From contig CAJINV010000012.1 of NCBI GenBank assembly GCA_905178155.1, positions 2,870,353-2,934,352 of the forward strand: DNA of 64,000 nucleotides. Reading direction: 5' to 3'. Shown piece after piece: positions 20,901 to 64,000 of the stretch. The stretch's first letter is position 1. Each line of letters starts with the position of its first letter. The position numbers were made by a program, and so were the translations under genes. A model generated the notes under the pieces. It had not been told where the DNA came from. It saw only the letters and a list, made by a program, of their open reading frames with translations, and made no database searches. The stretch is from Amoebophrya sp. A120. Its lineage: Eukaryota; Protista; Dinoflagellata.

Positions 20901-21013
20901 AAGGAAGGTGACTCGGCTTCCTTTAGCTGGTCAACCACGGCCTTCACAAAATTCGCAGACTGCGCATCGTAGCTGCATTCCAGAATGCGCTCGATGATTT
21001 TGGACTCGTCCAT
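14961..21013 (-). CDS. UFD2: Ubiquitin conjugation factor E4 (UFD2/UBE4, U-box ligase)
   Basis: Ufd2 core motifs VKNPSTRGKVV, FLNLLMSDATVQLDEG and LVGPKSMNLK..FHFKPVELL; C-terminal U-box [27 protein letters not shown]..DPFTK; 9 introners plus about 5 GT-AG introns. Confidence 0.93.
15043..15309. mobile_element. Introner family A, 267 bp
   Basis: DR CCACC; GT-AG register possible. Confidence 0.9.
16270..16419. mobile_element. Introner family C, 150 bp
   Basis: DR ACGGA. Confidence 0.9.
16439..16742. mobile_element. Introner family E (TIR TATYACARTGARAAATGCC), 304 bp
   Basis: DR CACGA; closely similar to 40319-40623. Confidence 0.9.
17784..18089. mobile_element. Introner family F (TIR TATGGGA..GTCAG.ATCGAAAT), 306 bp
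   Basis: DR ACAGT/ACAAT; inverted relative of 62422-62731. Confidence 0.9.
18172..18381. mobile_element. Introner family G (TIR TATGCAAGAAAAAAA), 210 bp
   Basis: DR TGCTC. Confidence 0.85.
18876..19129. mobile_element. Introner family A, 254 bp
   Basis: DR TGGTT. Confidence 0.9.
19250..19406. mobile_element. Introner family C, 157 bp
   Basis: DR GCAGC/GTAGC. Confidence 0.85.
20109..20388. mobile_element. Introner family B, 280 bp
   Basis: DR CGACT; opposite orientation to 682-974. Confidence 0.9.
20440..20698. mobile_element. Introner family A, 259 bp
   Basis: DR CGGCA/AGGCA; same subfamily as 50891 and 61836. Confidence 0.9.
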
Positions 21014-31540: not shown

Positions 31541-37598
<6,058 letters not shown>

Positions 37599-43516: not shown

Positions 43517-44652
43517 GATTTTGTGCTACTGTTCAATGAATGCAGCCAATAATCGCAAATTTGCATGCAGCCTACTACTTATGTATGAATCGTTGAGTTT
43601 GCGATACTGAGATAAATATGAACTACGATACCAAGGTGGAACCCTGCCGTAATTCTGCGAGCTGAAGAACCACGTAATAAAAATCCGGAAGGCACAAAAA
43701 TTGCAAGCAAGCACACGGGACCCAAACTGCAGAAAAACACACTTCCAAGAGTCGAGCAGAACCTCCACGGCAAGTGTTGACAAGAAATCTTTTTCTCAGA
43801 AACCTTGTACAGAAAAGATTTGCGCAGCCAGATCGGTATCGATAATTTCTTGCATGGCAATGATTTCGACTTCATTTTCGATCCACCATCTCCTGACCGA
43901 GGATTCCATTACCGAAAATGCATTTGACTCGCGACAAGATATAAATGGCGATCATCTTCTTCCAAATTCATGATCGTTTTGGATCGAATTTTCGAAGACC
44001 CAACGAAAGAGAACCAAACCGCCTGTGTGGCCCAGCCACTGTCCGCGTCCTTTCAACGTGCTTGATCTTGTTTCCGTACTATCGCTTTGCAAAATAAAAC
44101 TGAGATGAGTACTGAGATGAGTACTTACTTATGTTCTTGTCTTCAAATGAAGCTGCTCAGTGCCGTTTTCTTTCGGTTGAGGAATATCGTGGGCCATGCT
44201 TGGTTTGAGTGCATGGTGCAATTCAGCAGCACAGCCATAGGTCCCCTCACTCAGCTTCTCTTCTTTTCCACCAAGTTCATCATCCCAGATTTAGTGAAGC
44301 AAAAGAAATCGTGTCAGCTAAAGAAAACTTTTTCCAGATTCTCAAGGATCAGCATTAGGATTAGTGTACTAGGTTTTACGATAGTGAGGTTTTTTTGTGC
44401 ACGGGCACAACTCATCATCTGTGACAGTGACGACAAAAATGTAAAAATCAACGCTGTGTAGTTAAGCTTGGAATAAAAAAAATGTGACAATTAGCAGATA
44501 CGTAAATTGACGGTGTAGCACACATGACACCGCCGCGAGGACTGTATGATGTGAGCTGGTAAATGTCAAGACAAGATGAAAAGAAATCGCGCATGAAAAC
44601 CACCGGAACTACAGCTCAACCCATTACCGGTAAAAGAGGAGTAAGTACGGTC

Positions 44653-45945
44653 TTACTCATACTCATCCCCCAGCAACCGCTGCGACTCCGCGTCATTGTC
44701 CTGGCTTCCATATCAAATGCAAATATGTCTGGGTCTGGAAGGTCGCCACTTTTGTCATGCATATTTTGCGTGACCCATGATGTCTGTAATGCATGCCGTA
44801 GCATCACAGATTTTTAGAGGGCTTCCTGATGCCTATTCCGCATGAGAGATACCGTCCCCGCGTAGCACAAACTGGACCTTGCTGGTCATGCAATACAGAT
44901 TTTTTTTGGAATCCAAAAACAGCATCACAAGTTGCAACATTCCGGACCCAGACACTTTTGCATTTGATATCCCAACAGAAGAGGACTGCTTGCCGTTTCT
45001 GCGCTGCTTCAGAGAGGAACTTCCCGGCGTGCTGTTAGGACCCGCGGCACCGTGGTCAGCATCCCCCCCGCCGCTGCCCCCGCCAAACGCCAGCGGCGTG
45101 ATCGCCTCAATTTCGATTTCCCCGGCTTCTTCCGCCTTCACTTTCCTGACCGGCATGTTGACCACAGGAGGTCGCCTCGAGTGCACACCGGTCATTTGCC
45201 GCTGGTAGGCGGAGGTCCCCGTCATGTCCTCCGATTGTAAAAACTCATTCGAGTACGGGTGTCCTTCGTCGTGGATGTAATTCGAATTCCGGACAAAGTG
45301 CGACTCGCCGAACTGGTCCACGAACATCTCCGGTTTGTCTTCCATCTGCGAAACCCGGAAATCCCTCCGGTTGTCCTCCTCCTCCTGCTCCCAAACGTCC
45401 ATGTCTTCGTGCCGTTTTTTCGTGATTTTCCCGCACCCGCAGCCGCCGAACCGGTTAATCAGGCACATCCAAATACTGAAGACGACGAGCAGAAAAACGA
45501 TGTGCACCACCATGAAGAGCCACTGCCACCAGGTATTGCGCCACACGTTGTAGCCGGAATTCCAGTGGTAGACCATCGGCTGCGCCACGTCGCCCACATT
45601 GAGGGTGTTCATGGGATCCGGAAGCACCGGCCCCACAGCTCCTGCCGAGGTAAAAGTACCACCCCCACCCGCCTGGAACTCGATAAAGGAGCCTGCATGT
45701 TGTTGTTGGCCGGAAGAACTATGCTCGTGCAGGAACTGGCCGCTGGAAAACAAGTTTGTTGAAATTCCTTGGTCCGAAGTGGGGGAAGAAGATGCCATCA
45801 ACGCTGTATTCCCGCCGCTTCCAATAACGGCGAGCGTCTGCTGCTGGTGCTCTTGGGCCACAACATCTTGGCTGCCGACCAGGAGCTGCTCCGCAGCGGA
45901 GGCCGCCAGGTTGCGGAGCTTCTTCTCCACTTCTTTGATGATCAT
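44653..45945 (-). CDS. Hypothetical single-TM protein; 5' exons possibly further upstream
   Basis: ORF 44833-45990 with TM segment LFMVVHIVFLLVVFSIWMCL; joins to last exon SQDNDAESQRLLGDEYE*. Confidence 0.65.
44711..44969. mobile_element. Introner family A, 259 bp
   Basis: DR TTCCA/TCCCA. Confidence 0.9.
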
Positions 45946-47015
45946 GATTTTCAATGCGGTTTGGTACTGAAAAATTTGTGCGGAAATCAAACAGTTAGAG
46001 TTATCGCCGTACTACCGAGTCTGTTTATGCGATAGAAAAATCTCTAGGTACCGGTGGAAAAAATTTAGCGCAATAGGAAAAGGTTGGTCCTAGATGTCTA
46101 CTACACATGCAGCTAACGGGAGCTGCGATTGTCAAATCTTAGTCCTGCAGGAGTAAGCAGACTTCGACCTGTAGGTATCATGTATGAACTTTTGGTAGAA
46201 ATGATATGGAGAAGACTTTAGAGGATTCGGTTCCGTAGACCCCCGAATTTGGGTGTAGTTCAAAACATTCATCATAAATCCTTACCACCAAAACCGATCG
46301 CGCTTGCAATTCGCGAGAACCGATACTCACGTGGCCGTCTGGGGCACTGATATCGGCAAACCGAACAAACTGCAAGGATCAAGATGGCACAGAAAAACCG
46401 ACTCAATCAGCATGACGCAGGACACGACCGATCAATCAAATTGAGAGTACCGAAGAAACCGTGAATCATGACGGACCGAGAGGAGAATAGGAATAAGTAA
46501 ATCGAGTAGTACTACACCGAAGATTTCGACACCAACATGCATGCGAGTACAGACACCTCCATCGGACAAATGGGTCATGGTGATAGAAGCAGCATCAATT
46601 TCGTTTCTTTCAGATTTATATTCTGCTTTAATTATTTCAAAAAGTCAAAACTTTTTTTTTGGTACAAGTTCATTCTCCAAGTCTGCGTAAAAGGATCTCA
46701 ATTTTCTCAAACTTCTCCGCTTTGATGTTCCTTTGCGACCGCGAAGGGCGCGCTTTTATTCCCCTCTTCATCATCGGGCTTTCCGCCTTTCCGACGAAAA
46801 AATGCGGACTCTTTGTCAATCTTGAACCTAAAAACTCTGGTATTGAAACTCTGCTTATACCTCAAAGATTGCGTAGAACCTCTGAATATAATAGTATAAA
46901 ACTTTGGTTTTAATTTTGCGTATACTGATCTTGAAAAGTGTTTGGTTAAATTTTGCGTAACAGCGTCGTGAACAGTACTAAACAACGCAATACAGGCGGT
47001 AAGTAAGTAGTTCTC

Positions 47016-49214
47016 CTACTTCTTTTTCCCCTTCTTTCCTTTTTTCTTTTTTCCTCCTCCAAGCGCCTGCTCCAAAGCCTCGTAGGTCGATTGGGAACAC
47101 CTCTCGGGCACCTGGACCTCCTTCAAATGGGACAAACCGATCATGCCGTGAATCAGTTTTTGCGCGCCCACGTCCGATATCTGGTTGCCGACCAACCGGT
47201 AGACTTCGAGAACTGTGATGAAATTTTTTACTCAGTTAGAGTACAGTAGTCGAAGATCCTCGTGATGGTGATGCATGCCATCTGTGCTGTGAGAAAGCCC
47301 TTCACTAGTAGTAAGTAGTGTGTGTAAGTACTAACAACAGAAACACTCCTGCAACGAAAAATGAAAAACAATCAAGATACGCATGTTGTTCTGGAAGCAG
47401 TCCAGCAGGACGTCGAGTATTTCGGGTTTTTCGGAAAATTTGTTGTCCGCTAGGTCGAGAAGTTTCAGCTTTTGATTTCTCCTGACGCCCTTCAACAGCG
47501 CAAGCGCCCCCACTATGCATTGCAAAAATGTCTGGGTCTGGAAGTTTGTCATGCAGGACAGACATGATAGAGACTTCGCAAAACCTCTCATGCTAGGTGC
47601 TGCATTGCAGACCTCGGGGGGCATGAAAAACATGCATGACAAGTTTGCATTCTTCCAGACCCAGACATTTTTGCATTTGATACCCACGTCGCCCAGTTCA
47701 TTACCCCGTAAGAGAAACTGCTCCATTTCTGACTTCTGGTACATCAGTATCGTCGCTAGCGGAGCAGTATCCATTGTAAATATGTATCTGGGTCTGGGAG
47801 ATGATTGCGACAAGGTTTGTCATGTTACTCTAGCATGAGAACTCTGAGCTCTGTATATTTGTGTGGCCGCGCAAAGCTCATCTTGCCTGTCATGCAGCAA
47901 AAACGCCATTTCTCACGCGGAGTACACAACTCGAAACCACGTCATGCTTGGCAGCGCATTACAGTCGTGTGCTCCCTCGTTATTCCCTTCCTTGCATCAC
48001 AAGTTAATATTTCCAGACGCAAACAAATATTTGCAAGGCATAAGCGCCACCCTGCGGCCCGATTGCGCAGTATTGGACGGACAGGGCACGGAGGAACTGA
48101 ATTTTTGGTTTTGCTTTTTGTCATGCAGCCCCCGCAACACGAACACGAACGCATTCTGTCATGCCGGCACACATAAAAAATCAATGATTTGCATTTCTAC
48201 TTATACGTGATTCTGTGCCAGCCCGACCGCTAGCTTCTCTACGCCCTTTGCTCCTATGTGGTTGTAGTCTAGCCTCAAGTAGCTTACTGGCGGTACTAAC
48301 GCTAATTTTCCCGCTACTCTCTCGCGCCCGCCGAGGGCCATACCTGGTTAATATTTTTCTTCGGTTTTGAAATGAATGTCGCGGCCGTGATTTCACGACA
48401 TAAACGGCATAGAGTACTTTTCTTTCATAGGTCAAGGTCGTTTCTGCTGTGCATGATAAACAAAAGCAACAGTAGCTACTACCGATGAATTCGCAGCCTA
48501 GGTCTGTGACATTATTGTCCGTAAACTGCAGATCCTCCACCACTACGCCGTTTGGTGACTCTAGGTAGTCGCAAACCGCCCGCACAGATTCATCGCCCTT
48601 AGGGTCGCACTTCCACAGACGCACATTCGAAATTTTCTTGTACCTGTATGAAATTCACTTGTGGTTTGAACCTCCATGCGGTTGTTGCAATAATGACATT
48701 TATCATATGAGAGATGCAAAAAATGATAGATTTAGACTCTGTCTTGCAGCAGGATGATAGCATAACTACAAAAAAGTAGCGGTTCTCACTGAAGATGACT
48801 TTACTCTGCTTCCCTCAGACTGTGCATGAGTATGTTGAAGCCCATGGAGTCTAGTGGCTCGGTGAAGTTCCATCTTATCTGCATGGGGTCCATGCCCTCG
48901 TCAAAAAAGCCTAATATCTTCTCCACGTCCGGTGCAGGTTTTAGGCCGTACCTGTGGTTCGCAAAAATGAAACAAATCATGGCCGTGACTAAAGGGTTTG
49001 GTGTAGAATGGTGCAGCATGTGCATCATTGTAGTATCAGTATGTCACAACCAAAAGTGCCAGGTCGGTGTTCTGCAAAATAAATGACATCATTCAGAAGC
49101 ACCAGTATATGATCAATACTGCTTCATGGCCTTCTGGTATATCCTCTGAAAGGCCTCCCATGTCTCATCCTCTCCGCCGGCTGCTGCGGCCTTTGGCTTC
49201 GCTTTCGGTGGCAT
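47016..49214 (-). CDS. RNI-like leucine-rich repeat protein
   Basis: Starts MPPKAKPK; LRRs LQFTDNNVTDLG, LRLDYNHIGAKG, LLRGNELGDVG and LDLADNKF; basic C-terminus. Confidence 0.8.
47514..47682. mobile_element. Introner family A, internally deleted, 169 bp
   Basis: Full TIRs; DR CCCAC. Confidence 0.9.
47768..48042. mobile_element. Introner family A (diverged), 275 bp
   Basis: DR AGCAG/AGCGC. Confidence 0.8.
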
Positions 49215-50135
49215 GTTCTACGAACTTGGCCGCTTTGTGTAGGAACTTCTTCTACAACAGGAGGTCTACAACCGCCGCCCGTTCTTCCGGGTATTGGAAC
49301 TGCTCAACAACCAGCAGCACGTCCTCACTTCTGCACCGGTCGTGGTGGCTGCTTTTGTTCCTGACCTACACTGCGCAGTTCGTTGTGCTTGGAAGAAACT
49401 TATCAGCTGATGGACTCATTGTTTTTTAAAATTCTTCTTGCCACGGCCGCACAAGCCGTGCGGCGGACAAAAGTGTATTATAAAACCTGTTTGTCTTTTT
49501 CGCAGCACTGCAAAATTTCTTTCTGTTGATAGTTGGAGTAGTACTCACATATGATGTATCAGGTGAAGGACCTGGTCGTGCCTGTGGACCTAAAAACGAT
49601 GTTTTTGCTTTATCTCGAGCGGAAGCAGTAGCGAAAGACACAACTACGACGAGAAACAAGCTCGTGAAATCCAAATCTTCCCTCGGTGAATAAATTCAAA
49701 ATCAGCGCTCAGATGTACTAAGGTCCTTGCTCGTGGAGTTCGAAAATTTTTTCCTCTGTAATCATCGATCCTCTCCCTCGACGACCTCGGATTTTTTCAA
49801 CTACGCCGATGAACTACTAGAACACAATAATGAGAAGTATTTAGTCCGCGTCTGCCACTGAAAAATGGTTATCGTCACGGCCGTACTCTTTTCGAAGATA
49901 ATCGCACCAGCTCTAGTGTTGTACTAGACCGTATGAGTTGATATTGTCGCTTGAATTGTTAGGGATAGGAGAATAATCGGGAAACGCTGTCGCTTTGCCA
50001 ATCAGCCGGTGTTTTGCTGCTCGAGTGCAACATCATGAGGCGCAGCACGGCTTTGCATTTGAAGCTGCAAAGACCTCCTCGTCGTTTCGTTGCTTGAAGG
50101 AAGAATAAACTATCACTTTTTGTCGCTTCGAGAAC

Positions 50136-52802
50136 TTACGCTCCGCCCTTCCTCCCCTTCTTCTTCTTGCGTGAAGAGGACACAGTCGGGCTTATTTTGG
50201 GCTCCTTGACCTTCTGTTTCTCTTCGTTTTTTCCCGCCACCTCCTGCTTATCATCATCACAGTACGCAGGATCCGGCTTTGCCCCCGGGTATCGAAACCC
50301 AGGACAGAAATTCGTCTCGCCGCAGATGGCGAACGGGACCGAGCGCCCGATAGAAGCTGCTGTGGGTTCATCTTTTATCTCGGAATTATGAATACCCGAT
50401 GGTCCATCAACTGTCGTTTCATCCTCAACTACTGGAAGAACCTCGTTTACCTGCAGGTGCAAGTGCGGCGTCGGCGTGAACCCCGCTTGCCCCGACGTGC
50501 CAATCTTCTGCCCAATCGAAACTTTGTCACCGACTTTGACGAAAATTTTGTCCAAGTGCACGTACTCAATGCGGTACTGTTTATTGGATAAAAATTTCGG
50601 AGAAGAAGGTGCTGGCGACAATTCGACAGATGTAGTTTTTGAGCATGTAGGATTTGCATTTTTGCCAGGACCTGCAGAACAGCTCCTCCTGGACGTCTGC
50701 TCATCTACACAGCCAAAACTATAATTCTTGCTATCATTCCCCGTGGCACCGCCGTCAAACTGGATTGCGATCTCGTTCCATTTCCACAGGTTCCGCACGT
50801 GTGGCCCGCAGAACTTTTCGTTTCCTCCCCGGACCTCCACAATTGTTCCGTTTACCAGGGAAACCACCTCCGTCCCAACTTCGGCGTCGATATGCATTGC
50901 AAATATGTCTGGGTCTGGAAGGTTGGAACTTGTAAAAATGCTAACTTTCCATACCTAGGAATTCTGTATTGCATAGCAAACAAAAGTCGCGGCCTCTTTT
51001 GTACATGCAAGAACGCAGTTTCTCATGCGGATTGCCTATGAGAAAGCGTTCTGGAAAGTTGTCATGCTGGGTTGCATTCGGAACTGTTTCTATCATCCAC
51101 ATTTTAGCATCACAAGTTTCCATACCCAGACACTTTTGCATTTGATAGTCGAAGTCCACCGCATAAAAGGTCGACGGGTCCTGGCCGTGGGTCAGGGTTC
51201 CGCCGAAACCCTGGCTGCACGGGAATCGCTCTACTTCTTTTGCTTGTATGCATTGCAAATATGTCTGGGTCTGGAAGGTTGCAACTTGTGATGCTGGCTT
51301 TGGATTCTAAAAAAGATTTGTATTGCATGAACAGCAACAGAGGTGCAATTTTTGCTACGCGGAGAGGGCTTCCCTCATGCGGTACGAGCATCAGAAAGCC
51401 CTCGCAGAATCTCTGATGCTACAGCATGCATCACAGACCTCATGGGTCATGCACAATCTGCATGACAAACTCCTGCACTCTTCCAGACCCAGACATTTTT
51501 GCATTTGATAGCTTGCGCAGGAGTGCTATTTGATGAGCGGCGGTCAACTACATTGCCTTCCTGCAATTCCACCGCCTGGAGGGAATCGGAATGACAATGA
51601 AGATCTTCTGGAGAACTACTACCTCTCCGTCTCAGCGGAAAGACCGGAAAATCAAATCGGCAGTCGGTGAGAACTCGTTTCGGAGTTGTGTTGTACTGGC
51701 TTTTGTCGATTTGTTTCTGAAAGGAAATGTTGGTTTCGATTTGGACATCCGGTGCAAGGGTGTAAGGCGGAGGGGAAAACTCATCCTCGTCAGACTCCAC
51801 CTCCTCCTCCTCTTCCTCCGGAACTGAGGCCGGACTTCCAACAACCTTTGCCCCAAACGGCACCTTCCCGGTTTCTGCGAACGCTTCCAGCAAGTTTTCG
51901 TAGCGACCCGCAGGAGTGTTGGGAATGAAACCCGGGAACGCACAAACCTCGCAAATTGAAAACGGGGGCAGGTAGAGCACGAGGGTGATCACGGTGGAGG
52001 CTTTTATTTTTTTGGTCGATGTCATGATCATGTGCTCTGGCTTCCCCTCGACGTGGTCGATGTCAGGCCTGTCGTGCTCCCTCTCCTTCTCTACACCGGT
52101 ATGATTTTCGTTTTCCTTGTCATTTTCTCCCTCTCCAGCAAGCAGAGCATCATCCTCTTCCTCAACCTGTGCGGGGCAGGACTCTAACAGGACATAGCCG
52201 CCGTCGAGCAGGTGTAAATTCTTATGACTTTCGCCCCCGAAAGAACTCTTTTCCGTTCTCCTTTTTGGCGGTCTTAACACCGCCGGCCAGTTGATAGGAA
52301 AATAGTTCTTGTCCTGCTGTTTCTCTCCAAAGAAGATCTCGTCGTCGTCCACATCTTTAGATACAAGAACGTCGGTACTACGGGAGGTGCCACCACTGCT
52401 GCACCTCCTAAAAATCTTCTCCCCCTTCTCGTCTGCTTGTCCACGAGCTCCGGGGAGTTGAAACGTGACGTGGAAGCAGACGTTCCTAGCGTGTTTGTTC
52501 ACCACGTTGAAAATCCCGTCTTGAAACGCGTAATCAGGTAAAAGATCTGCGTAGTACCGTTCCTTTATTTCCGCAGCAGAAAAAGTAGTTCTACTTGGGT
52601 AGTTCCTCGTATCTTCTTCTTCCAGGAGGTCCACCTCTTCAATGGGGTACACTTCCTCCAGTCTTTCCGGGCGGCTGAGCGCCCAAGACGGATCTTTGTC
52701 GAAACAGAACCGCTCGATGTGCACCCCGGGCCAGCAGTGATTGGTTTTCAGAAACCGCGCGGGAGGAGGAGGAGTATTTCGGCTCGAACTTGAAGACGTC
52801 AT
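50136..52802 (-). CDS. M23 family metallopeptidase domain protein
   Basis: SQGFGGTLTH..YAVDFD; YVHL..VKVGDKV..GQKIGTSG..G..PHLH; 2 introners. Confidence 0.85.
50891..51147. mobile_element. Introner family A, 257 bp
   Basis: DR GTCGA. Confidence 0.9.
51247..51510. mobile_element. Introner family A, 264 bp
   Basis: DR GCTTG. Confidence 0.9.
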
Positions 52803-53716
52803 TTTTTTTTGTGGGACGACAGGTTGTGATCAACTACAGGGTCCACCTGTACGTAGGTATGTTATGTTCATTTATCTGTGAATGAGCCCGGCGATAGATC
52901 ATACCACCAAACCAAAAGCCGAAAGAACAAGCCTGTGCAAGAACAAAAGAATTTCACGTCGTTGGCATTAACACTAACATCTGCAACAAAATTTTGCTCT
53001 TGGATCTTTTTGAAAGTGCTACTTCGGCGTCGAGAGATTTTTTTCATCTGTGAAGATCCTCATGAAGAGCCATTTTCTTGATCCCAAATTTTCTAGGCGT
53101 TTTGCGTTTTTCGAGATACAGGTCCGGCAAGAACTGTAGGGGACCTACGCGGCTGATCAACGCAAAAATCGCAACAACAACACTGATCCTCAACCCTGAT
53201 CTTACGAGCTGGCACGAAAAAAGGCATATCAATTGCCCAGGCTCGCTTAGTAGGCTATTGCTACTTCTTGCAGGTGGTGTCATGCAAGTTCTTCATACCA
53301 GAAAAAAGTTAAATGACAGAAGCAATTAATCTTTTCTTACCTGTTTTTCTCCCCGTCGGCGTCGAGACGCAACCACACATTGAACACTTTCTCTTGTAAC
53401 ACAGCAGACTACGACTCTCTCACTCAGACTACTTACACCAGTTTTTCTTTTTTATGACAATACTCTCTCATAATAATAATATGATTTGAATATAAGAGAC
53501 TGAAGTGCCTCGGTATCAGTACAGCAAAACGGGAATAGTCAAAACCCCTGGTAGTGGTATAGTACAGCAAAACGGAATTGTCAAAACGGGAATAGTGCAG
53601 TGCAATAATCAAAACCCCTGGTAGGTCAGATAAAACAGATTTCGATCTGTGCGTTGCATAGTTTACGGAGAAAGGATCTATAAGGATAATCTATAAGGAG
53701 GCCACTTTGCCTCTTT

Positions 53717-54172
53717 GACTGCTTTTGAGTTTGAACTTTGTTTCCAAAAACAACTATACAGTACTTCTTTATCAAATTGTGGAAACAAGATAATCTTGTT
53801 TCCACCAGAACCGTAGCGATACACATGAAGATTCTTGCCACGCTGTGATAAAAGATTAGATCATACACGTAGAGACGTTTCGCGGGCGGCATTGCATTTG
53901 TGTGTGGCTTGGCTCGACTGCTTTTGAGTTTGAACTTTGTTTCCAAAAACAACTATACAGTACTTCTTTATCAAATTGTGGAAACAAGATAATCTTGTTT
54001 CCACCAGAACCGTAGCGATACACATGAAGATTCTTGCCACGCTGTGATAAAAGATTAGATCATACACGTAGAGACGTTTCGCGGGCGGCATTGCATTTGT
54101 GTGTGGCTTGGCTCGACTGCTTTTGAGTTTGAACTTTGTTTCCAAAAACAACTATACAGTACTTCTTTATCA
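53717..54172. repeat. Tandem repeat, period 199 bp, about 2.3 copies
   Basis: Units start at 53717, 53916 and 54115; apparently identical. Confidence 0.9.
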
Positions 54173-54279
54173 GGTTGTGGACATAACTACGAGGTGTACA
54201 ACAACAAATCAGGTTGTGGACAAGACTACGACGTGTTATCAGGTTGTGGACATAAGCAAAATCTATCCTCATACGATCA

Positions 54280-55131
54280 CTACTCTATGCTCTCAACTTT
54301 CAACGTGAGAGTCCAGCCATTCCGATCCTCCCTGAAGATGGTTCCGCACACAATGAGGCTCGGTGCCTGGGGCAGAAACACTTGCTTCTCAACCTCGTCA
54401 AACCAGACACCCCCCAGCTTGTCCTTGTCGGCGTCCGAAAGCTCCACGCCCCCGGTCTCCACTACGAACGCGCTGTAAGAAATATGGCGCTCGCCCAGAA
54501 GGTAGATCCTCACTAAGGTTCCGAACGGGGCGCTCTCCGGATAGACGGCGGAAGTGGCCCGCAATGGCTCGCGCACCAGCGCCTTTTCCAAGAGATGCAG
54601 AAAATGCCGAAAGCTGTCATCTAAGGGTGGGGAGGCCGCCGCGACTCCAGCGTTACTTCCTCCTGTTTCGACATCATTGCTAGTCTCCATGGAGCGGCTC
54701 CTCTCCGTGGTCGCTCTGAGGACCGCACCGGGCTCGACGTAAGACAACAGCTGCGTCGCGAAACCACGAGGGGGCGCCACATTTCGGAAGAGGCGACTAG
54801 CACGGCGAAGCTCCACAGGGTGCAGCAGCAGCTGGTAAAACGGTTTCCAGGAGTGTTCCTCGAGATGCCTAATCCTGTTAGGTTTTCTGGAGCTTCCCTG
54901 GTTCTCGTACTCATCCTCGCCGTCATCGTAAATACTCTGCGGTCGTCCTCCGGGCACCAGGGTGTCAAAAATGGCGTGCAGCGGAAACTCGAGATAAGAA
55001 CAAACATGGGCCACTATAGAGTCACAATCTGGAAGAGAGACGCCGGGTTCGCGGCCAGGATCCCGCACCGTGGCGAGGCACGGACCTGCGAAACAGAAAA
55101 TGCTGAAGAGCAACGGTCGGAAAGACATCAT
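54280..55131 (-). CDS. Hypothetical protein with signal peptide
   Basis: Intronless 283-aa ORF; N-terminal hydrophobic leader. Confidence 0.65.
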   Translation of the reverse strand: MMSFRPLLFSIFCFAGPCLATVRDPGREPGVSLPDCDSIVAHVCSYLEFPLHAIFDTLVPGGRPQSIYDDGEDEYENQGSSRKPNRIRHLEEHSWKPFYQLLLHPVELRRASRLFRNVAPPRGFATQLLSYVEPGAVLRATTERSRSMETSNDVETGGSNAGVAAASPPLDDSFRHFLHLLEKALVREPLRATSAVYPESAPFGTLVRIYLLGERHISYSAFVVETGGVELSDADKDKLGGVWFDEVEKQVFLPQAPSLIVCGTIFREDRNGWTLTLKVESIE

Positions 55132-55930
55132 TGCGCGCGCTTTGATGCTAGAATGAAAGGTTGCTGATGGTGTGTCTCCTCAAGAAAAATACTTACCTGC
55201 ACCAATCACGAAAAGTGAATGATTGCGAAAATTTTTACTAAAATCACGCGAACTCTTTTAGTAGGATTGTGATATAGATTCATGCTCTTTGATCTCTTTG
55301 AAAGTGCTCTTTCATCTGCAACAAGATCAGGCTCTTTGATCTCTTTGAAAGTGCTACTCCGGCGTCACGAGATTTGATGTTTCTGTGAAGATCATCACGA
55401 AGGTCCATTTTGATCTCCATCTTTGCTACAACCGTTTTCGATCCTAAATCCTTTTTGCTAAAATTTTCATCCAGTCATCCGTCTTTTGAGCACCAGTATG
55501 GCTTCAGCAGAAAAAGGACTTCGCTGCGACTCAACAAAGGATTTAAGATCAATCTCCATCGGCTCCTGTGGCGTAAAAATCCATATCGGGTTTCGATCCA
55601 GAAGATCAAGATCCTGCTTTCGGATGGGAAAGAACTTGGCGGGGGGGCACTGCTGCAGTGACCGACTTTTTCTTCACTAAAAATGAAGGATACTATACAA
55701 CACGATGTCAGTTGCACAAGAACCCCGATGCAGCTGTGCAGCACAGTAGAAAGGAAATTATTTCTCTCTGCGGATCATGTGTTAATCTCCTCGCAGGTCC
55801 GACGACGATGCTGTAGTTGTCGAGACAGCACCTTGTTTCTTTGGAAAATAAAGCAGTTCTTTGAGCTTTTGGTTAAGTACTCGGCACCACCGCAGGCTAG
55901 ACCTGTTTATGTTTTACTATTTCGACATGA

Positions 55931-56860
55931 TCAAAGCGGCTTTCCCATGAGCATGGCAAACCCCATGGCGATGCCGCCGTACACCACGAACCCCGCGTGC
56001 ACCGGCTTCACCCACTGTGGCAGTTGCCGATACGTGGTCTGCGTCAGGAACGGCACTCCCAGCTGATTGTAATGCACGCCCACCGCTCCGAGTAACCCCC
56101 CGGCGTAGAAGTTGTGGGACGCAGACCGTCGGTTCGTCAGCGCTTCCAATGGACACTGCAACGCTTGGTAGAGGTAGCAGCCCCCGAAAAAAACGCCGGC
56201 GCGGCGGGCCGTTATTGGCGTCTGGTTCTGGGTATCAAATGTAAAAATGTCTGGGTCTCGAAGATTGCAACTTGTCATGCCAAATCCGAATCATGCAGAA
56301 ATCTGTGTTGCATCAGTGCCAAAAGCTGTCCACTTTCGACCAAGTTTCTTTGGAGGGAGTTTCTCATGCAGGATTGGCATGACAGAGACTTCGCAAAACC
56401 TGTCATGCTAGGTCGTGCATTCCAGACCTCATGGGGCATGGAAAATATGCATGACAAGTTCGCATCCTTCCAGACATCCAGGGATTTTTACATTTGATAC
56501 TGGGAGTAATCGAGCAGGAGGAGCAGCCCCGCATTATCAAATGCAAAAATCCCTGGATGTCTGGAAACTTGTGATGCTGGGGGGCGTATCATGAAGAGGC
56601 CACAAGTGCTGGCTCAGCATGACAAGTTACTGAGCTTATAGGTGTTGCCTATTCTGCATGACAAACTGCGTTTCTGCATCACAGAAAAATGGAGCTCTTG
56701 GGTAACGTGCATGACAGGTTTAAGAGTCATGCCAGACAAGCATGACAAACATGCATTTTTACATCTCATACGCATTGACCAAACCCGATTTCCCCGCCTC
56801 GAAAGAACAGGCGACATAGTCGAAGCTGGAGCCGCTGGAAGATCTACTTAAAACGGTCAT
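55931..56860 (-). CDS. Tim17/Tim22/Tim23-family-like membrane protein
   Basis: Spliced MTVLSRSS...GVFFGGCYLYQALQCPLEALTNRRSASHNFYAGGLLGAVG; pattern resembles Tim17/22; 2 introners. Confidence 0.6.
56233..56499. mobile_element. Introner family A, 267 bp
   Basis: DR CTGGG. Confidence 0.9.
56535..56770. mobile_element. Introner family A, 236 bp, truncated right TIR
   Basis: DR CGCAT; inverted near-copy of 62788-63039. Confidence 0.9.
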
Positions 56861-57164
56861 TTTTATCCTCTAGCAAACATGATTCAACACCTGCACGATT
56901 GCAAATAATAATAAACACCCAAGACAAGAAGAAATAAATATGCAGTCCAGCTTAAACTTACCAATTTTAAGAGGGCGATTGTAGTGAAAGCGAGGAATAA
57001 AGCAAGCGTCTCCTAAAGCGTGATTGTCTGGCATACTGAACTTCAGGCGGGCGCGCATTGAAAAAAAAATCCAAATAAGGAAGTGAAGTAGTCACTTATG
57101 TAAAAACAGATTGAGAAGCCTCAGGCACAAGCACGAGAAGCACAGGGAAGTACATTCTCCAGAA

Positions 57165-59330
57165 CGGTACGCGCTGAGGCCTAGAATTATTCGTAGTAGC
57201 ATCGTGATTGGGGTCAGACCTTGCGCATGTGCCCGGGCGTGGTGCCCTCGTGGAACGGCTTTTTTCACACTGCGGGAATATAAGTATTTTATTGGCCTAC
57301 GCGCGCCATACCATGCGGGTTGGCCCTTCGGAGTCTTCTGGTTTTTGCTTTTGTCTTTTACTAACATCTTTCCGGAATCCCGGGATTTCCGGAATCCCGG
57401 GATTTCTCGTGAAACTGGTGAAAATGTGAAAAAGTTGCATTCTTTTGACTGCTAATCACGACGGTGTGCACTCTTTTTCACGAGTATTTTCACCGTGAAA
57501 AAAATCGTGAAAAAACCTACGGACTGCGTCGCGAAACGCGATGCTACGGGCCTTGTTTTCGGAATTGGTTTGTCCTGCTTTTCCGCGATATTTCGCGAAA
57601 GCCGCGCAGCCGAATCACGACGGCATGGCCCTTTTTTCACGATGTGTCTCGCCGTGACACAAATCGGATCAAACGCTGCGACTTTATGTCGAATCCCAAT
57701 GGTATAGCGCCTGCGCCCGGAATTGGTTTCCGTGGTTTTTCGCGACCGCCGCGCCTGGGAGTCGCGACGGTGCGGCCCCTGTTTCACGGCGCGCCCCCCC
57801 TTGCAACGCTTCGCGCCAGGCTTGTGGCTTGCATCGATCGCGCTAACCCGCACCACGGCGCATGTCGGCAGTCTTTCCGTTGCGCGCCCGGGCGCGTGTC
57901 TACTTTTTCCGTGGTGGCCCTTGCCGGCGCGGGCCAGGGTCCGCACGCTCTAACAGCACGGCTTCGACTGTTCGGCGCGCGCACTGCGTGCCCTGGCACA
58001 TGTGGGCGCCAGCGCTTGGGGGCAATATTTTTCCGCGCGCGTAGTACGTGCGCCGGCGCATGTGGGCAGTATTCCCCACCACAGTGTTGGGCTTTGCCTG
58101 TCGCGTGGAATGCCTCTCAGGTTCTTGCGTGTGCCTTCGCCTTTCGCTTGGGTTCTGGTTGGCTGTCAGTGCGCCGCCCTGGCGTATTGACAACCAACCA
58201 GAAAAGGTTGTCGCTCTGGCGTATTGACAACCAACGAACACAAAAGTCAAGCGGTCTCCCTAACCAACATGGACACCAGTGACAGCCCAACAGGGCCGCT
58301 GCCCCTAATTCTTGCAGAGGCCCCCCGCCCGCGCAGGCCGCCCCCGCCGATCACCTCGGCACGGACGCGCGGGCAGCATTTCCACGTCGGCGGCCGCAGG
58401 CAGCGTGTCCAACTCTGTGCCCGCCGTCCCGCGTCACCGTCGCCGTGTGTTCAGGCGTTATGCGCGGGCCTTTGCGTACGTCTGCGCGCCGTGCTCCAGC
58501 CGCGTATTTGCGGTTGTTTGACCCCGCGCAGAGGCCGCGGCGGCGCTACTGGTTGCGCCAGCCGCGTATTTGCGGTTGACCCCGCGCAGAGGCCTCGGCG
58601 GCGCTACTGGTTTACTTCAGCCGCACGGGGCCGACCCATGAATGTGCTGCCACTTGGGAGGGGCAGGGCAGGGCGCCAGCGCGAGCTCCCTGCCTGCGGC
58701 AGTGGGGGTGAATGCGGGGCGGGCCCCCGCGGCGTTTCCCCTGTTGCGGGCGCGGGGCGATGTACGCGACAGGAGCCCTTGCGAGTGGGAAAGGAAGTCG
58801 AGGGACCCCCTCGAGCGCCAGGAGTGAGGGGCGGGGGCCCCCTGCGGGCAGGAGAGAAAGGTGGGGGGGCCCCTTGGGCACCAGAGGTGGGTTCCAGGAG
58901 TCCGGGGCGGGGGCCCCCTGCGCGCGGGAGAGAAAGGCGGGGGGCCCCCTTGGGCAGCAAAGGTGGAGGCTGGGGGCCCCCTGCGGGCGGGAGAGACTTA
59001 CCGCGGAGAAGGACGGGGGCCCCCTTTGACCTCCGGCGGGCGACCCGGGAGAGGAGCGGGGGCCCCCTGCGGAGGCGGGATGCCCAGCGGGCGAGAGGGC
59101 GGGGGGCGGGGGCCCCCTGTTTCACCAGGAGGGCGGCCCGGGTGAGGAGCGGGGCCCCCCTGCGGAGGCGGCAGGCGGAAGGGCGGGGGCCCCCTGCGGA
59201 CGCGGGGTACGCAGCGGGTGAGAGGGCGGGAGGCGGGGGCCCCCTGCTTTCCCCGACGGTATGGCCGACGCAAAAATAGTAACCCTCATCGTAGCATCGT
59301 GATTAAAACTCTAGGCCTCAGCGCGTACCG
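57165..59330. mobile_element. 2.17-kb GC-rich non-autonomous TIR element
   Basis: Perfect 21-bp TIR CGGTACGCGCTGAGGCCTAGA (57165-57185 and 59310-59330); internal GGGGCCCCCT arrays; no credible ORF; TSD not identified. Confidence 0.7.
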
Positions 59331-60454
59331 GTCTCTCTTGTGTCGTGAAAAGTCCGGCTAATGACGTAGCCTCACGATCTTTACTATTTCGCCATGCATT
59401 CCATCGCACGGAAAAAAAATGGTGTTTTCCTTCTCCTTTTCCAGCTGTTCGTTGAGCGATTGAATTGAACGAGAAACGGGAATACAGCAGTGCTAATTTT
59501 TCTTTTTGTCAACAAGAATGCTCATTGAACAAAACTGCAAGAAACACAGTTCGACATCGATCTTCCCCGAGACCTGCGCCGTCGGAGCAATCATTCTTTT
59601 ATTTCTTCCGCTCGCGTAGTTGTAACGAATATATTGCAATAAAGTCATTCTACTTCCACCAGCGTACGAGCGCATTGTCATAGTGCTTCTATGTTCATCG
59701 GGAAACAACAAGTGACTTTTGTTCATCACAATCGAAACGCCCTCCAGCAAATCATCACACAGAGAGAAAACGAGAAGCAATAATTTCCGATTCACATTCA
59801 ATCATTTTTTCCGACATTGAAAAAACAAACAATACAGTAGGTTGAAAACAAACAAAGAAACGCCGTCCCTAGTACCCAGGTACATCTGGCGCCGGAGTGG
59901 TGCGCTTTACCTTTGTTCCTTGCCCTTTGAGAAGTGAATTTCCTAAAACTACACGTAGCACTTACCTCCTTCATGCTCCTCAAGAAGAGGACGAGGACCT
60001 GATCCCTTTTGATATTGCGAAGACATCTAAGTAAGTACATGTGAAAAAACAGACTTTCTACTTTTTCTACGTCGTATGATAGATAGACTGCAAAGGCATC
60101 AATCGCGGACGCTGAAGCCGCGCCGTGATGCGAAATACGGCACAGAAGAGAAAACTTCTATGGTTGTGGGTGATAACATAAATTCGGTAGAGTTCAGTAC
60201 AGCAGTAAAATTTTCAACCTATTTCACCTTGGGTAGTTCGACCCCGCCGTCCCTGGCACGAAGTCGAAACTACGGTGTAGATAACCAATCCAATTTAGTA
60301 CAACCATGCCTTTAATTTTACCGGCCTCCAATCAGTATCAGATTTCGATTTGTAAAAACGCAACCACGCATAACAATCAGCGGCGACAATTTGTAGTCTT
60401 GCTCCTAGTACTTACTTACTTCACCCGCTATCTATGGTCGCTTTTATTCCCCCG

Positions 60455-63400
60455 CTACTTGTAATACCGTGGCTCTTTCACCACCAGCATCTCCTCCGGT
60501 AGGATCGACCGCAGAAAGATCGTGACGTCCTTGTGCGCCGAGGTGACAAACCTCTATGCAAGAAAAAAACGTTGTTAGTATAAATCTGTGATGCGCAATG
60601 TGCCAATTGATTGCGCCTGTCATGCTGGGCCTGCATAGCGGGGCCCATTCAAGGGCGTTTTCCCGTACTATCCGCGCATGACAGGTTTTTGCTGTGATGC
60701 GAGAGATATTTGTCATGCTAATCCTCCAAGAAAGTTACACATACAATGTTTTTTTCTTGGATAACCTCCTCTCCGTGTTTAGTAACGCTACCATGGTGTT
60801 CAGAACGTCCTTTGCCTTGTCCGTGTGCAAGACGTTCTGATCCAGCAACGGTTTCCCCGCCTCCTCCGGGTCTTCAAGGGGTAATCCCGTGTAGGTGTCG
60901 ATTTTTTGCTGATAGGTGATCGCGTCAAGCAGGATACTGACGGCTAATTCCAGCTTCTTCTCAAAAATCTCCTTCACTTGCTCCGCGGTCTTCTTTTTGG
61001 GCTTGCGCTTAGGAGGCGGCGGGGGCTCCGGGTTTTCGTCGCGCTCTGGCAAGTCCTCGAAATGATCTTGGACAACGTCAGACCTTTTTGTTTTTGTTTT
61101 TGATTTTCAAAAAATGCATGATGAACATCAACATGAGGCGACCAGAATCAAATACAAATATCATGCGCGGACAAAACAGGAGCTATTTTTATTTGAGTAG
61201 GTGTAAAAACTCTGGTCAACATCATGTGTACTTTTCAAAAAATAAGTCCTCTCATCAAGAAGAACATACCGTTCCTTAAACCCCTTGGCTTCCTGACGTG
61301 CGATTTCCGCGGCTTCTATCAAGATGAAAAATCCCCCCACCCCATATCGAAAAGGAGATCTGTGATGCTGATCGGATTTGTCTTGCAGCGAAGGACTGCA
61401 GGCAGATATAAAGTCTGAGCATGGTGTTTTCGTGTAGGCGCCTAGCAAGGCAGGCGTGTCCTCTGTAGGCCATACAGCATTACAAATTGCCTGCAAAGTG
61501 CGGCGATGCGTCTGGATTTGGCTTCTTGCAATACAGAGACGATTTGTGGTCACTAATCAGCATCACAAATCTTCAGAAGTGCCCCTTTTTGGTATGGGGA
61601 GGGGAGATTTTTCCTCTCAATAGCTTCGTTGCTGACCCCCGACTGCGGTTTTTCGGGCAGCAGCGCCTCCAGGTTGAGGAGTCTGTCGTCGAAGAACAGC
61701 CGGCCAAACGCTTTCAGACAGGTCGTAAAGCAGCTCCGCGTGAACCCCTCCAACACCGTGCTGGTGGCGTTCTTCTGCAGTTTCGCCCACAAATCGTAGC
61801 AGGACCGGACGACTTTTCGGTCCACAAAGCCGCGCTATCAAATGCAAATATGTCTGGGTCTGGAAGGTTGGAACTTGTAATGCTGGTTGTCCATTATACC
61901 TCGGGAATCTGTATTGCATAGCCAACAAAAGTCGCAGCCTCTTTTGTACATGCAAAAACGCAGTTTCTCATGCGGATTGCCTATGAGAAAGCGTTCTGAA
62001 AAGTTGTCATGCTGTGTTGCATTCGGAACTGTTTATTCCATCATCCACATTTTAGCATCACAAGTCTTCAGACGTCCAGGGATATTTGCAACGCATACGC
62101 GCACTTTATAGACGACGGAGAAGTCGCGGAGGAGAATGACCGCGGAGCAGCCGTTATGCAATGCAAAAGAAGTATTTTTGCACTCGTACTTCTAATCGCA
62201 GTCATGCAAGACAAAAAATATTTTTCAAGCTCAAGCAGCATGACAAATTCCGTTTGTCATGCTGAGCTAATTTGTATTGCAAAAATATTACGAGTACGAT
62301 TTATACTTTTGCAATGCATAGCCGTTGTCGCAGTAGTCCACCACGTTGCTCTCCTCAACCTTGTGGCTCCAAAAGAAGCAGATCTCGCCCTCCTGGGCGT
62401 TCAGCGAGCCAAATGGGGTGTTATGGATGTGTCAGAGTTGAAATCGACAAAGTTGAATAAATAATCTGTCATGCATAAAATGGATGCCAGTTGGAACCCA
62501 GTTTCCAAGTGGCGCATGACAAATTTCGGTGGTCCCTAAATCCAGTTTGTCATGCTGTTTAGGCAAAGAAGGGCGATTTTCTCATGCTACTTTAGCAGCT
62601 CGAGCTGTAACCCCAAACAGGCTTACAATCGGCCTCACTTGCCTGCTCTGCAACACACGTGCCTCGGGTCATGCATTCTATGCATCACAAATTATTTCAC
62701 CTTTGACGATTTCAAACCTGACGCACCCATAGGTGTTCATCACATCGTAGATCGGCACGTCCTCGATTTTCGTCCGGGTCGCCTCGTTATCAACTGCAAA
62801 TATGTCTGGGTCTGGAAGAGTGCGCGTTTGTCATGCTTGTCTGGCATGACTCTTAAATCTGTCATGCACGTTACTCAAGAGCCCCATTGTTCTGTCATGC
62901 AGAAACGCAGTTTGTCATGCAGAATAGGCAACACCTACAAGCTCAGGAACTTGTCATGCTGAGCCAGCACTTGTGGCCTCCTCATGATACGCCCCCCAGC
63001 ATCACAAGTTTCCAGACCCAGACATGTTTGCATTTGATACTCGTCGGCGTCATTGGTGACCGCGTCGGTCTTGTAGTGCGAAAGCACTTGCTATTAAGAG
63101 GAAAAATCCCCCCTCCCCATATCGAAAAGATACGCTTCCGAAAATTTGCGTTGCTGATTTGAGACCACAAATCACGCCTGTCTTGCAAGAAGGCAACTCC
63201 ACAAGCTCCGCAGCATTGCGCAGGCGGTTTGTGATGCTGATAGGCCTACAGCACGGACGTTCCTCATGCTAGACGCCTAGGCCAAAACCTCTCTACTTAG
63301 GCTTAGTATGGGCATGCATTTCTCTCCAGCAAGACAGATCTGATTTGTGTACGCAAATCCTGCATCAGAAACTTCGTTTTGATATGGGGAGGGGGGATTT

Positions 63401-63760
63401 TTCCTTTTGATACTTGCGTTGTGTCCACAAAGGGGTCGAGGGCTGCAGTAGATGAAGATCATGATGGGTTTTTGGATTTGTAATTCACGGATGCACTACT
63501 CCTTGAATATGAATTTGAGCCATCCAACAACGAAAACATAGCACGCTTAGAGTGTTCTTACACTGAACTCTGAGGCTATCCTGTTCACCCAAAAGCATTA
63601 GCATTACAACACAGCAGTGCTATACCAGCCAGCCGATCTATGGTTGCTTTCGCGAGGACGTTTTGTTCGTAGTTTGGCAGGTACTTTGCCAGCATCAAGT
63701 GCAGCCCATCCGCCAGCTGCACCGTGTTCTCATCGAATGATATCCGACAGAAAAAAAGTG
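60455..63760 (-). CDS. Hypothetical multi-exon protein; start uncertain
   Basis: Continuous frame DPFVDTTQVLSHYKTDAV..YDVMNTPFG..DRKVVRSCYDLWAKL..EPRYYK* after removing 7 introners and GT-AG introns. Confidence 0.65.
60555..60763. mobile_element. Introner family G, 209 bp
   Basis: DR ACCTC; GT-AG register possible. Confidence 0.88.
61317..61622. mobile_element. Introner family I (TIR TAT..AGA.GAAAAATCCCCC), 306 bp
   Basis: DR GCTTC. Confidence 0.9.
61836..62097. mobile_element. Introner family A, 262 bp
   Basis: DR CGCGC. Confidence 0.9.
62155..62320. mobile_element. Introner family C, 166 bp
   Basis: DR GCCGT. Confidence 0.9.
62422..62731. mobile_element. Introner family F, 310 bp
   Basis: DR GGTGT. 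Confidence 0.9.
62788..63039. mobile_element. Introner family A, 252 bp
   Basis: DR CTCGT. Confidence 0.9.
63092..63412. mobile_element. Introner family I, 321 bp
   Basis: DR CTTGC. Confidence 0.9.
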
Positions 63761-63929
63761 TATTACAGTGACTTACATAATTTGCGGCCGTGATTTCAGC
63801 AACACAAGATTGCACTGCATGTTGGCAGAAGAAAATTTGCAATGCAGCGATCTTAATATATATAGACCCGGGAAAGGTAGAAATTGCCCGAAAGTACTGA
63901 AATCGTGAAGCACTTTATCACTCCCCGCG

Positions 63930-64000
63930 TACCCTTACCCGAAACCACTCCAGCGATACCCTTACCCGAAACCACTCCAGGGTTTCCCGGTTTCCCGGCT
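63930..64000. repeat. Short tandem repeats at the window edge
   Basis: TACCCTTACCCGAAACCACTCCAG twice, then GGTTTCCC twice. Confidence 0.6.

Follow-up and report, generated by a model that had tools for sequence, protein, structure and literature searches.

Introners, repeat families that lie inside genes and are removed as non-canonical introns, have been described in Amoebophrya sp. A120 by Farhat et al. 2021 (PMC7789003), and Gozashti et al. 2025 report 58 introner families in this genome (PMC12130899). Non-canonical introns make up more than 60% of those in A120, and the route of their removal has been a question since 2021. According to PMC7789003, A120 retains U2, U4, U5 and U6 along with 83 out of 89 spliceosome proteins, but neither U1 nor snRNP27 was detected. 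In yeasts, loss of SNRNP27K accompanies a +4U preference, according to the available part of PMC10581693. The Fig. 3 legend of PMC7789003 calls the splice sites variable and the border position unknown; the text, figures aside, mentions no element orientation, fixed cut register or internal motif and uses "orientation" for genes only. Elements with terminal inverted repeats (TIRs) that form introns in either orientation are described for Polarella glacialis and Aureococcus in the available part of Roy et al. (10.1101/2020.10.14.339549).

The window analyzed here, a 64,000-nt stretch of A120 contig CAJINV010000012.1, contains 50 elements, 139–349 bp long, whose inverted ends read TAT...ATA and which are flanked by 5-bp target-site duplications (TSDs). 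They are the introners of Farhat et al. Among the 100 element ends, positions 1–3 are T, A and T in 98, 98 and 99 cases and positions 11–13 are A in 91, 93 and 91, in line with the introner signature of TAT, seven looser nucleotides and at least AAA. The TSD is exactly 5 bp in 37 of the 50 window elements and in 251 of the 325 found on other contigs (none of the latter has 4 bp and one has 6 bp), within the 3–5 nt border direct repeats of A120 introners, and the 11 families found are repeats inside genes, removed as non-canonical introns. The resemblance to the published elements (PMC7789003) extends to a length of ~240 nt, non-canonical borders, short direct repeats (5 bp in the Fig. S19 legend), co-oriented genes and genomic share (17% of the assembly there, 19% of this window), with no difference seen. 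Host proteins match A120 proteins at 98–100%, on one contig. The same end-profile search found no elements in three shuffled windows; the 111 translated window segments scanned contained no transposase family, Rfam gave no matches, and none of 138 loci compared overlapped the unique sequence of the window. A120 introners are MITE-like elements, and their TIRs and TSDs suggest spread by a DNA transposase.

An earlier sequence-only reading had placed all host genes on the minus strand. This stands for the genes with evidence (Pfam, mapped proteins) but is not proof for every gene. Pfam matches occurred in 9 of 65 minus-strand and 0 of 46 plus-strand segments scanned (each at least 70 aa, out of 135 minus and 171 plus segments listed), three annotated A120 proteins map to the minus strand, and removal of the element favored that strand for 40 of 50 elements. 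Host genes on the minus strand are P0161 (1237 aa; 4889–10377), with 6 introners and 3 GT-AG introns, UBE4B/Ufd2 (P0121; 14964–21013), with 9 and 5, and the helicase DDX5/DBP2 (P0001; 31544–35342), with 6 and 5. The coding start of the DDX5 gene lies slightly above 35342. Among 72 candidates for a homologue of the gene holding the element at 62788, none was significant.

Within these genes, close copies lie in both orientations. The family 2 (~254 bp) elements at 56535–56770 (reverse; TSD CGCAT, stem z −2.6) and 62788–63039 (forward; TSD CTCGT, stem z −6.1) are 85.8% identical when one is inverted and 57.2% on the same strand, and both coordinate sets are exact. Removing the former plus 5 nt opens an ORF at 55934–56869; the latter lies in a restored ORF at 61164–63458. 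The inverted copies claimed earlier are borne out: 16 of 16 named pairs align better inverted (0.65–0.86) than direct (0.56–0.65), the weakest being those with 28180–28528, a relative of family 0 identified by pair alignment and bearing an internal insertion. Family 0 (~263 bp) is forward at 10–272 (family orientation and pair alignment) and at 5567–5830 and 15043–15309 (both removed in gene models), and reverse at 28586–28850 (family orientation and pair alignment). Family 4 is forward at 682–974 (family orientation and pair alignment) and 24605–24890 (in a restored 1749-aa ORF), and reverse at 20109–20388 (removed in a gene model). The element at 62422–62731 is the inverse partner of 17784–18089 in the UBE4B-like gene (family F of the earlier reading; 77.6% inverted vs 61.3% direct), that at 60555–60763 (family 3, reverse) is the inverse of 18172, and that at 51247–51510 (family 0, reverse) is an 82% inverse of 44711–44969 (forward). 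Two family 5 elements, forward at 61317–61622 and reverse at 63092–63412, share one restored ORF, and family clustering assigns 61836–62097 to family 7 and 62155–62320 to family 1 (~150 bp). A further 20 elements within 6723–47682 start at 6723, 6933, 8379, 11842, 12227, 12641, 12862, 16270, 16439, 18172, 18876, 19250, 20440, 26311, 27827, 38801, 39093, 40006, 40319 and 47514.

Orientation called from element interiors alone, with 32 nt trimmed per end, produced no conflicts among all family edges; hence, the inverted signal is not an artefact of the TIRs. Same-family pairs in the window number 64 in the same orientation and 57 inverted. Across 234 strand-called elements in 11 families the two orientations are close to 50:50, with a minor-orientation total of 92 against an expectation of 99.6 (95% range 90–107) and 1007 same vs 967 inverted pairs. 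Strand in the other contigs was called by a coding model, which was confident at 60 of 81 loci (L042 and L059, on one contig, gave conflicting calls), and errors in these calls push the counts toward 50:50. Pairs within a locus, which need no strand call, split 56 same to 43 inverted. Family 1 departs from parity, at 25:11 (uncorrected p=0.029). GTAAG-type counts did not discriminate the strands (19 vs 18).

In the three gene models, which were built from transcript alignments (PMC7789003), 21 of 21 elements are removed with exactly one copy of the duplication (length+5), 19 resolved by gene-model mapping and the other two by a junction peptide. The element at 17784 is removed in this way in P0121. 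Inside the single DDX5 gene, family 0 is removed in both orientations, forward at 35081–35342 (length+5 in P0001) and reverse at 32890–33154 and 33543–33804; the gene also holds 34186–34462 (family 4, reverse, removed in the gene model), 32034–32183 and 32682–32833 (both family 1). Five of the six DDX5 junctions, including that of 33543, which splits the ATPGRL motif, align with the A25 orthologue without a gap at +5 only.

Contigs from two further runs, X3 and X6, which are one sample and whose RNA status is a guess backed by contig behavior, skip the elements at 50891–51147 (family 7; X3 record 12, X6 record 19) and 51247 (X3 record 12: 980+94+453=1527 nt) by exact arithmetic, and end at the edge of three more. 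X6 record 16 begins at 44970 with 0 mismatches, X3 record 14 ends at 56227, just ahead of the TSD of 56233–56499 (family 0, reverse), and X3 record 15 and X6 record 22 end at 60548, ahead of 60555, and then carry on as longer records. The DNA-like contigs of run X1, possibly the source of the assembly itself and informative for its own life stage only, retain all five; their depth is ~25–33 in unique parts, the long ones run into elements, and record 2 crosses the element at 47768 unbroken. Junctions were read from contig pieces because the X1 joint table was taken up by cross-matches between the ends of elements; none of the 15 X1 joints listed (505 more were unlisted) skips a single element. 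The raw RNA run X9 yielded 5 reads, too few for use. As the RNA-like contigs skip what the DNA-like contigs keep, removal appears to take place at the RNA level, and both orientations are removed, neither being the one retained in the transcripts checked. The elements at 56535 and 62788, which are outside the set directly seen spliced, would be removed likewise.

Five decayed duplications concur on one cut register, N-TAT...ATA-NNNN. The element at 6318–6456 (family 1; TSD match 2/5) fits its annotated protein in register 4 only, 5903–6169 allows registers 3–5, 32034 allows 4 or less, 32682 allows 1–5, and the imperfect TSD of 44711 requires 4 or more; four of these junctions come from gene models and not reads, one alone fixes the register, and each family is present among them in one orientation only. 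Three imperfect TSDs in UBE4B and 6933 set no constraint, and the base direction of 45 single-mismatch TSDs was uninformative on register. In register 4 the +1 position shows a weak preference for G, present in 99 of 252 elements against a background of 29.8% (p=0.0015), by orientation in 44/121 and 43/100. Terminal AG is not enriched (17 vs 19.3 expected); 61% of elements have no +1 G and 93% no AG. A G-start donor and an AG acceptor coincide in 6/252 elements at register 4 and in 16/197 at any exact register. Of 13 mapped GT-AG introns, 12 start with GTA and 7 with GTAT. Their homology to a third of the element set is slight (scores 27–38 vs 22–34 for shuffles) beyond an 8-nt motif that, in either orientation, is common to elements and many GT-AG introns and may be a splicing mark.

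Recognition had been proposed to be symmetric and structure-based. The symmetry is supported: with transcription as the reference, 5' and 3' ends are indistinguishable across the 34 positions compared (n=253, lowest p 0.057), and elements of either orientation are removed. It would be incomplete, given a cut that is offset by 1 nt from the 5' end but by 4 nt from the 3' end, together with a +1 G favored whichever way the element lies. The structural part is plausible, though unproven. A terminal stem forms on either strand in 98–99% of 252 elements, with positions 4, 5 and 7 paired in only 42–58%. The transcribed strand has no excess of G.U over A.C (189 vs 209; p 0.34), so selection on RNA pairing is not demonstrated, and folding energy does not differ between sense and antisense (p 0.21).

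From the observed anatomy, two-way insertion, exact restoration of coding sequence and presence in DNA-like but absence from RNA-like contigs, we lean towards the following explanation. A120 introners, about equally frequent in both orientations and lost with one TSD copy, would be spliced through interchangeable ends at a fixed offset set by transcription. The intron would begin 1 nt ahead of the 5' element end and finish 4 nt past the 3' end, as the five junctions suggest. Either end would supply U-A-U at +2 to +4, as A120 GT-AG donors often do, so that a spliceosome without U1 would accept the element with a relaxed +1, and the position of the 3' cut would be set by its distance from the paired end, not by an AG. 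The enzyme would be a divergent spliceosome or separate machinery.

The last point leads to a possible but less favored alternative, in which the same symmetric, fixed-offset removal from RNA is the work of a non-spliceosomal machine that recognizes the hairpin formed by the ends, a mechanism proposed for the nonconventional introns of Euglena. The absence of dinucleotide borders common to both systems suits such a machine, but the ends look like the local donor (preferred G at +1, UAU at +2 to +4), the motif is common to elements and GT-AG introns, and the 4+1 split of the TSD matches the proto-splice geometry of Polarella class 12 in the available part of that source. Excision from DNA, as for ciliate IESs, or from a DNA copy before transcription, would make orientation irrelevant and would agree with the symmetric transposon-like ends, the precise loss with one TSD copy and the lack of any sign of RNA-specific wobble selection. 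The sequence-only reading had offered DNA-level removal as an option; we consider it very improbable, since X1 carries the elements, an RNA-like run contains a retained form of one (47768–48042, family 2, decayed TSD; X3 record 10, 47736–48072, depth 10.7), and G at +1 tracks transcription in both orientations.

Near-conventional donors, branch points and acceptors on each strand, as in the two-way introners of Aureococcus and Polarella, are improbable as well. The sense strand does have slightly more in-frame GY-AG pairs no further than 9 nt from the ends (60 vs 43 of 162 elements; 14 vs 9 of 35 in the window), and families 0 and 2 carry, whichever way they lie, a GCATGAC-type motif 41–50 nt from the 3' end. 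However, exact restoration can be read as GT-AG/GC-AG in only 6/35 window and 10/162 other elements (antisense control: 1 and 9), the elements at 50891, 51247 and 56233 have no such register, and the 3'-near motif of families 1, 3 and 4 is confined to one orientation (0/11, 0/18 and 0/12 in the other). YTRAY near the 3' ends is depleted (36 and 45 of 252 elements vs ~109 in shuffles); this branch-point test is weak because A120 GT-AG introns also do without the usual consensus (YTRAY in only 2 of 10 local ones). For the dinucleotides, the conventional reading is largely refuted; conventional sites on each strand were not seen, the branch-point part of this being the weak one. A bolder form of the fixed-offset explanation, which we regard as speculative and rather doubtful, is that any hairpin-ended TAT...ATA insert, in either orientation, is removed by one cut 1 nt ahead of the stem and another 4 nt past it, splice-site dinucleotides playing no part, while an orientation-free GCATnAsA, read on DNA or duplex RNA, would mark both intron classes in place of U1. 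Transposons bearing the mark would then act as perfect introns from the moment of insertion, wherever they land.

Splicing through interchangeable ends at a fixed offset would also explain how a compact genome cheaply carries a transposon load of 17–19% within conserved genes. Because removal is independent of orientation, a signal within the family-specific interior is ruled out; with a fixed register, each intron with ambiguous borders would have a single predicted junction, a testable splicing rule. The elements themselves are known; we saw no mention of their orientation symmetry, the fixed register or the shared motif in the literature searched.

Several described systems share parts of this behavior, as far as the available portions of the respective papers go. 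Fritillaria borealis has MITE-derived, TIR-bearing, non-GT-AG introns, but with preferred AG-AC/AG-AT borders, none of which are seen in A120 elements (PMC11282704). Euglena nonconventional introns likewise lack GT-AG, place their paired end motifs at offsets that are fixed but unequal, carry direct repeats that are slidable and are suspected of a MITE origin (PMC12501133). Their offsets are 3 and 5–6 nt, compared with the probable 1 and 4 in A120, and the motifs differ too: A120 elements end in TAT...ATA and do not fit the Euglena signature N3CDG...CH'GN5-6. Furthermore, the repeat families formed by A120 elements are young, and their TSD is strictly 5 bp long. Polarella and Aureococcus elements create introns in both orientations, as is also the case here, and the 5-nt TSD of Polarella class 12 is split NNAG/G, the same 4+1 geometry that our junctions suggest (10.1101/2020.10.14.339549). 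They differ in having an orientation bias and G(T/C/A) donors and AG acceptors that derive from TIR or TSD, whereas A120 elements have a TSD of almost random sequence and no enrichment of AG.

Self-comparison and a de novo search for element ends identified 50 introners of 139-349 bp in the window, which together occupy 12,159 bp (19%). Nearly all of them start with TAT and finish with ATA, and their ends form an imperfect inverted repeat of about 30 nt. In exon searches, the window matched Amoebophrya sp. A120 proteins at 98-100% identity and orthologues of the related strain A25 at 61-78%, and one A120 contig carries all three of the minus-strand gene models used here (DDX5, 31544-35342; UBE4B, 14964-21013; P0161, 4889-10377). 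The accessible text of Farhat et al. 2021 (PMC7789003) describes A120 introner repeats that open with TAT, followed by seven less strict positions and then three or more A, flanked by direct repeats of 3-5 nt. The ends in the window agree with this description, and the elements therefore belong to an already known class. One of them, 28180-28528, is interrupted internally by roughly 85 inserted bp, which open with a short trinucleotide run.

The sequence-only reading had claimed that close copies lie inverted relative to each other within minus-strand genes. This was true for all 16 pairs it named; the focal family 2 pair, 56535-56770 (reverse) and 62788-63039 (forward), is 85.8% identical when inverted vs 57.2% when direct. 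Supporting evidence for the minus strand came from Pfam matches in 9 of 65 minus segments vs 0 of 46 plus segments submitted, and element removal favored this strand for 40 of the 50 elements. In a larger sample, an end-pattern scan gave at least 138 loci, all of one public contig series. The loci listed contain 325 distinct elements according to an end profile that ignores the flanks and that regained 40 of the 50 window elements; an exact direct repeat of 5 bp was present in 251, of 4 bp in none and of 6 bp in one. Strand was confidently called in 60 of the 81 listed loci of sufficient length. Among 234 strand-called members of 11 families (42 elements that were singletons or in pairs being left out), the minor orientations totaled 92 vs 99.6 expected at 50:50, and same-family pairs numbered 1007 same vs 967 inverted with no orientation conflicts. 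The same:inverted ratio was 56:43 within the listed loci and 64:57 in the window. In family 1 (e.g. 6318, 12641, 16270), one orientation prevails by 25:11 (p=0.029 without correction), and by 7:1 within the window.

The elements are removed from RNA. In the three transcript-based gene models, the element plus one copy of its 5-bp target duplication (TSD) is absent for 21 of 21 elements, and DDX5 contains family 0 in both orientations (forward 35081; reverse 33543 and 32890). Compared with 119 other homologues, removal of length+5 in DDX5 scored best and aligned without gaps to A25 at five of six junctions, the sixth falling within a glycine-rich stretch; it was also best-scoring at 5 of 9 UBE4B junctions. 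Retention would put stops in all three minus frames for 45 of the 50 elements. Four read runs were compared over 44400-64000, of which X3 and X6 are only guessed to be RNA and come from one sample. Both have zero depth at 57480-59441 and skip introns. In an X3 contig of 980+94+453 nt, precisely two elements are missing, together with one TSD copy apiece, and further RNA-like contigs end at the borders of 44711, 56233 and 60555; 44711 and 51247 form an inverted pair with 82% identity. Another X3 contig keeps 47768. Splicing of the focal pair was not directly seen in these runs, and both members sit in reading frames opened by removal. Excision from DNA, the other route proposed from the sequence, is highly improbable, as run X1, which behaves as DNA, keeps the elements that X3 and X6 skip. 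Hence, removal is real, occurs at the RNA level and is a property of the known element class.

Conventional signals on each strand are an improbable explanation of this removal. GT-AG or GC-AG could be read at some register of exact restoration in 6 of 35 window elements and 10 of 162 other listed elements with perfect TSDs, vs 1 and 9, respectively, in the antisense control. YTRAY near the 3' ends was below shuffles on both strands, but this test is weak since local GT-AG introns have it in only 2 of 10 cases. The symmetry of recognition suggested by the sequence-only reading fared better: relative to transcription, the two ends are alike at 34 of 34 positions tested. A structural basis is plausible: among 252 elements, 98-99% have 10 or more of their first 22 nt paired to the 3' end on either strand (folding z of -2.6 for 56535 and -6.1 for 62788). 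Against a purely structural reading stand the lack of surplus G.U pairs on the transcribed strand, the poor pairing at stem positions 4, 5 and 7, and the conservation of TAT and AAA as sequence, which suits transposase binding as well. A separate RNA machinery is a possible but less probable agent than a divergent spliceosome with cuts measured from the element ends, which we moderately favor.

The cut register can be read where TSD copies differ, as the mature sequence shows which bases stayed. Element 6318 is compatible with register 4 alone, 5903 with 3-5, 32034 with at most 4, 32682 with 1-5 and 44711 with at least 4; four more imperfect TSDs in the three genes gave no register information. 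The single register satisfying all five junctions is N-TAT...ATA-NNNN. In 6318 and 5903 the repeats are decayed, with 2 of 5 TSD bases still matching, and from this we infer that the cut is measured from the element ends rather than by repeat identity. At 32682-32833, a TSD base in the gene model encodes E where A25 has D, and the ancestral base remains in the copy assigned to the intron. Under register 4, G is found at +1 in 99 of 252 elements vs a 29.8% background (p=0.0015, both orientations), and AG at the intron end is at chance level. GTAT opens 7 of 13 local GT-AG introns, and thus either element end offers a donor-like U-A-U, which U6 might read. U1 and snRNP27 are reported to be absent from A120 (accessible text of PMC7789003), and the available part of PMC10581693 describes a +4U link; both are consistent with such a role for U6.

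A motif noticed post hoc, GCATnAsA or its complement, is found 15.5 times per kb in elements vs 0.12 and 0.27 times per kb in coding and unassigned DNA, respectively. The mapped GT-AG introns contain 14 occurrences in 2,066 bp (10 of 13 introns; 0.66 in shuffles); their positions vary, and eight point one way and six the opposite way. A simple gene parser, which found 11 of the 13 known introns, predicted 114 in the other listed contigs. Of these, 35 have detectable element homology and may be missed elements or intermediates in the conversion of introners into canonical introns; the remaining 79 carry the motif in 24 cases vs 2.3 when shuffled. Evidence against such sharing is that, of 29 additional introns predicted in the window, just 4 have it; many of these predictions are probably false, lying in repetitive intergenic DNA. 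The motif in GT-AG introns may reflect either decayed elements or a true intron mark.

Other features accompany the introners. At 57161-59334, 28-nt inverted arms (93%) surround 2.1 kb of GC-rich repeats. Most of this stretch has zero depth in the RNA-like runs, and the DNA-like run shows elevated depth there; it may be another kind of multi-copy TIR element, located between genes. The minus strand at 21760-29309 perhaps encodes one large fused protein: an inward-rectifier K channel C-terminal domain is followed by a predicted intron (27554-27647) and then by a GST N-terminal-like domain within a 1749-aa frame. A restored minus-strand frame of 720 aa at 50139-52829 contains a Peptidase M23 domain, a mostly bacterial family. 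Local direct duplications lie outside the elements at 53717-54181 and 52978/55313.

The literature searched, with figures and subscription journals outside its scope, contained nothing on Amoebophrya orientation, register or the GCATnAsA motif; Fig. S21-S23 of Farhat et al. may concern register. In the portions available, two-way introners with G donors and AG acceptors are described for Aureococcus and Polarella (10.1101/2020.10.14.339549), matches in opposite orientation are permitted by Gozashti 2022 (PMC9860276), and the expected orientation is required by Gozashti 2025 (PMC12130899), where the A120 families, to judge from 19 of the 58 supplementary rows, are mostly TIR DNA of unknown superfamily. 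The accessible parts of PMC11282704 and PMC12005148 provide further context. Judged by the available text, the Euglena intron code (PMC12501133) is the nearest working analogue to the A120 elements.
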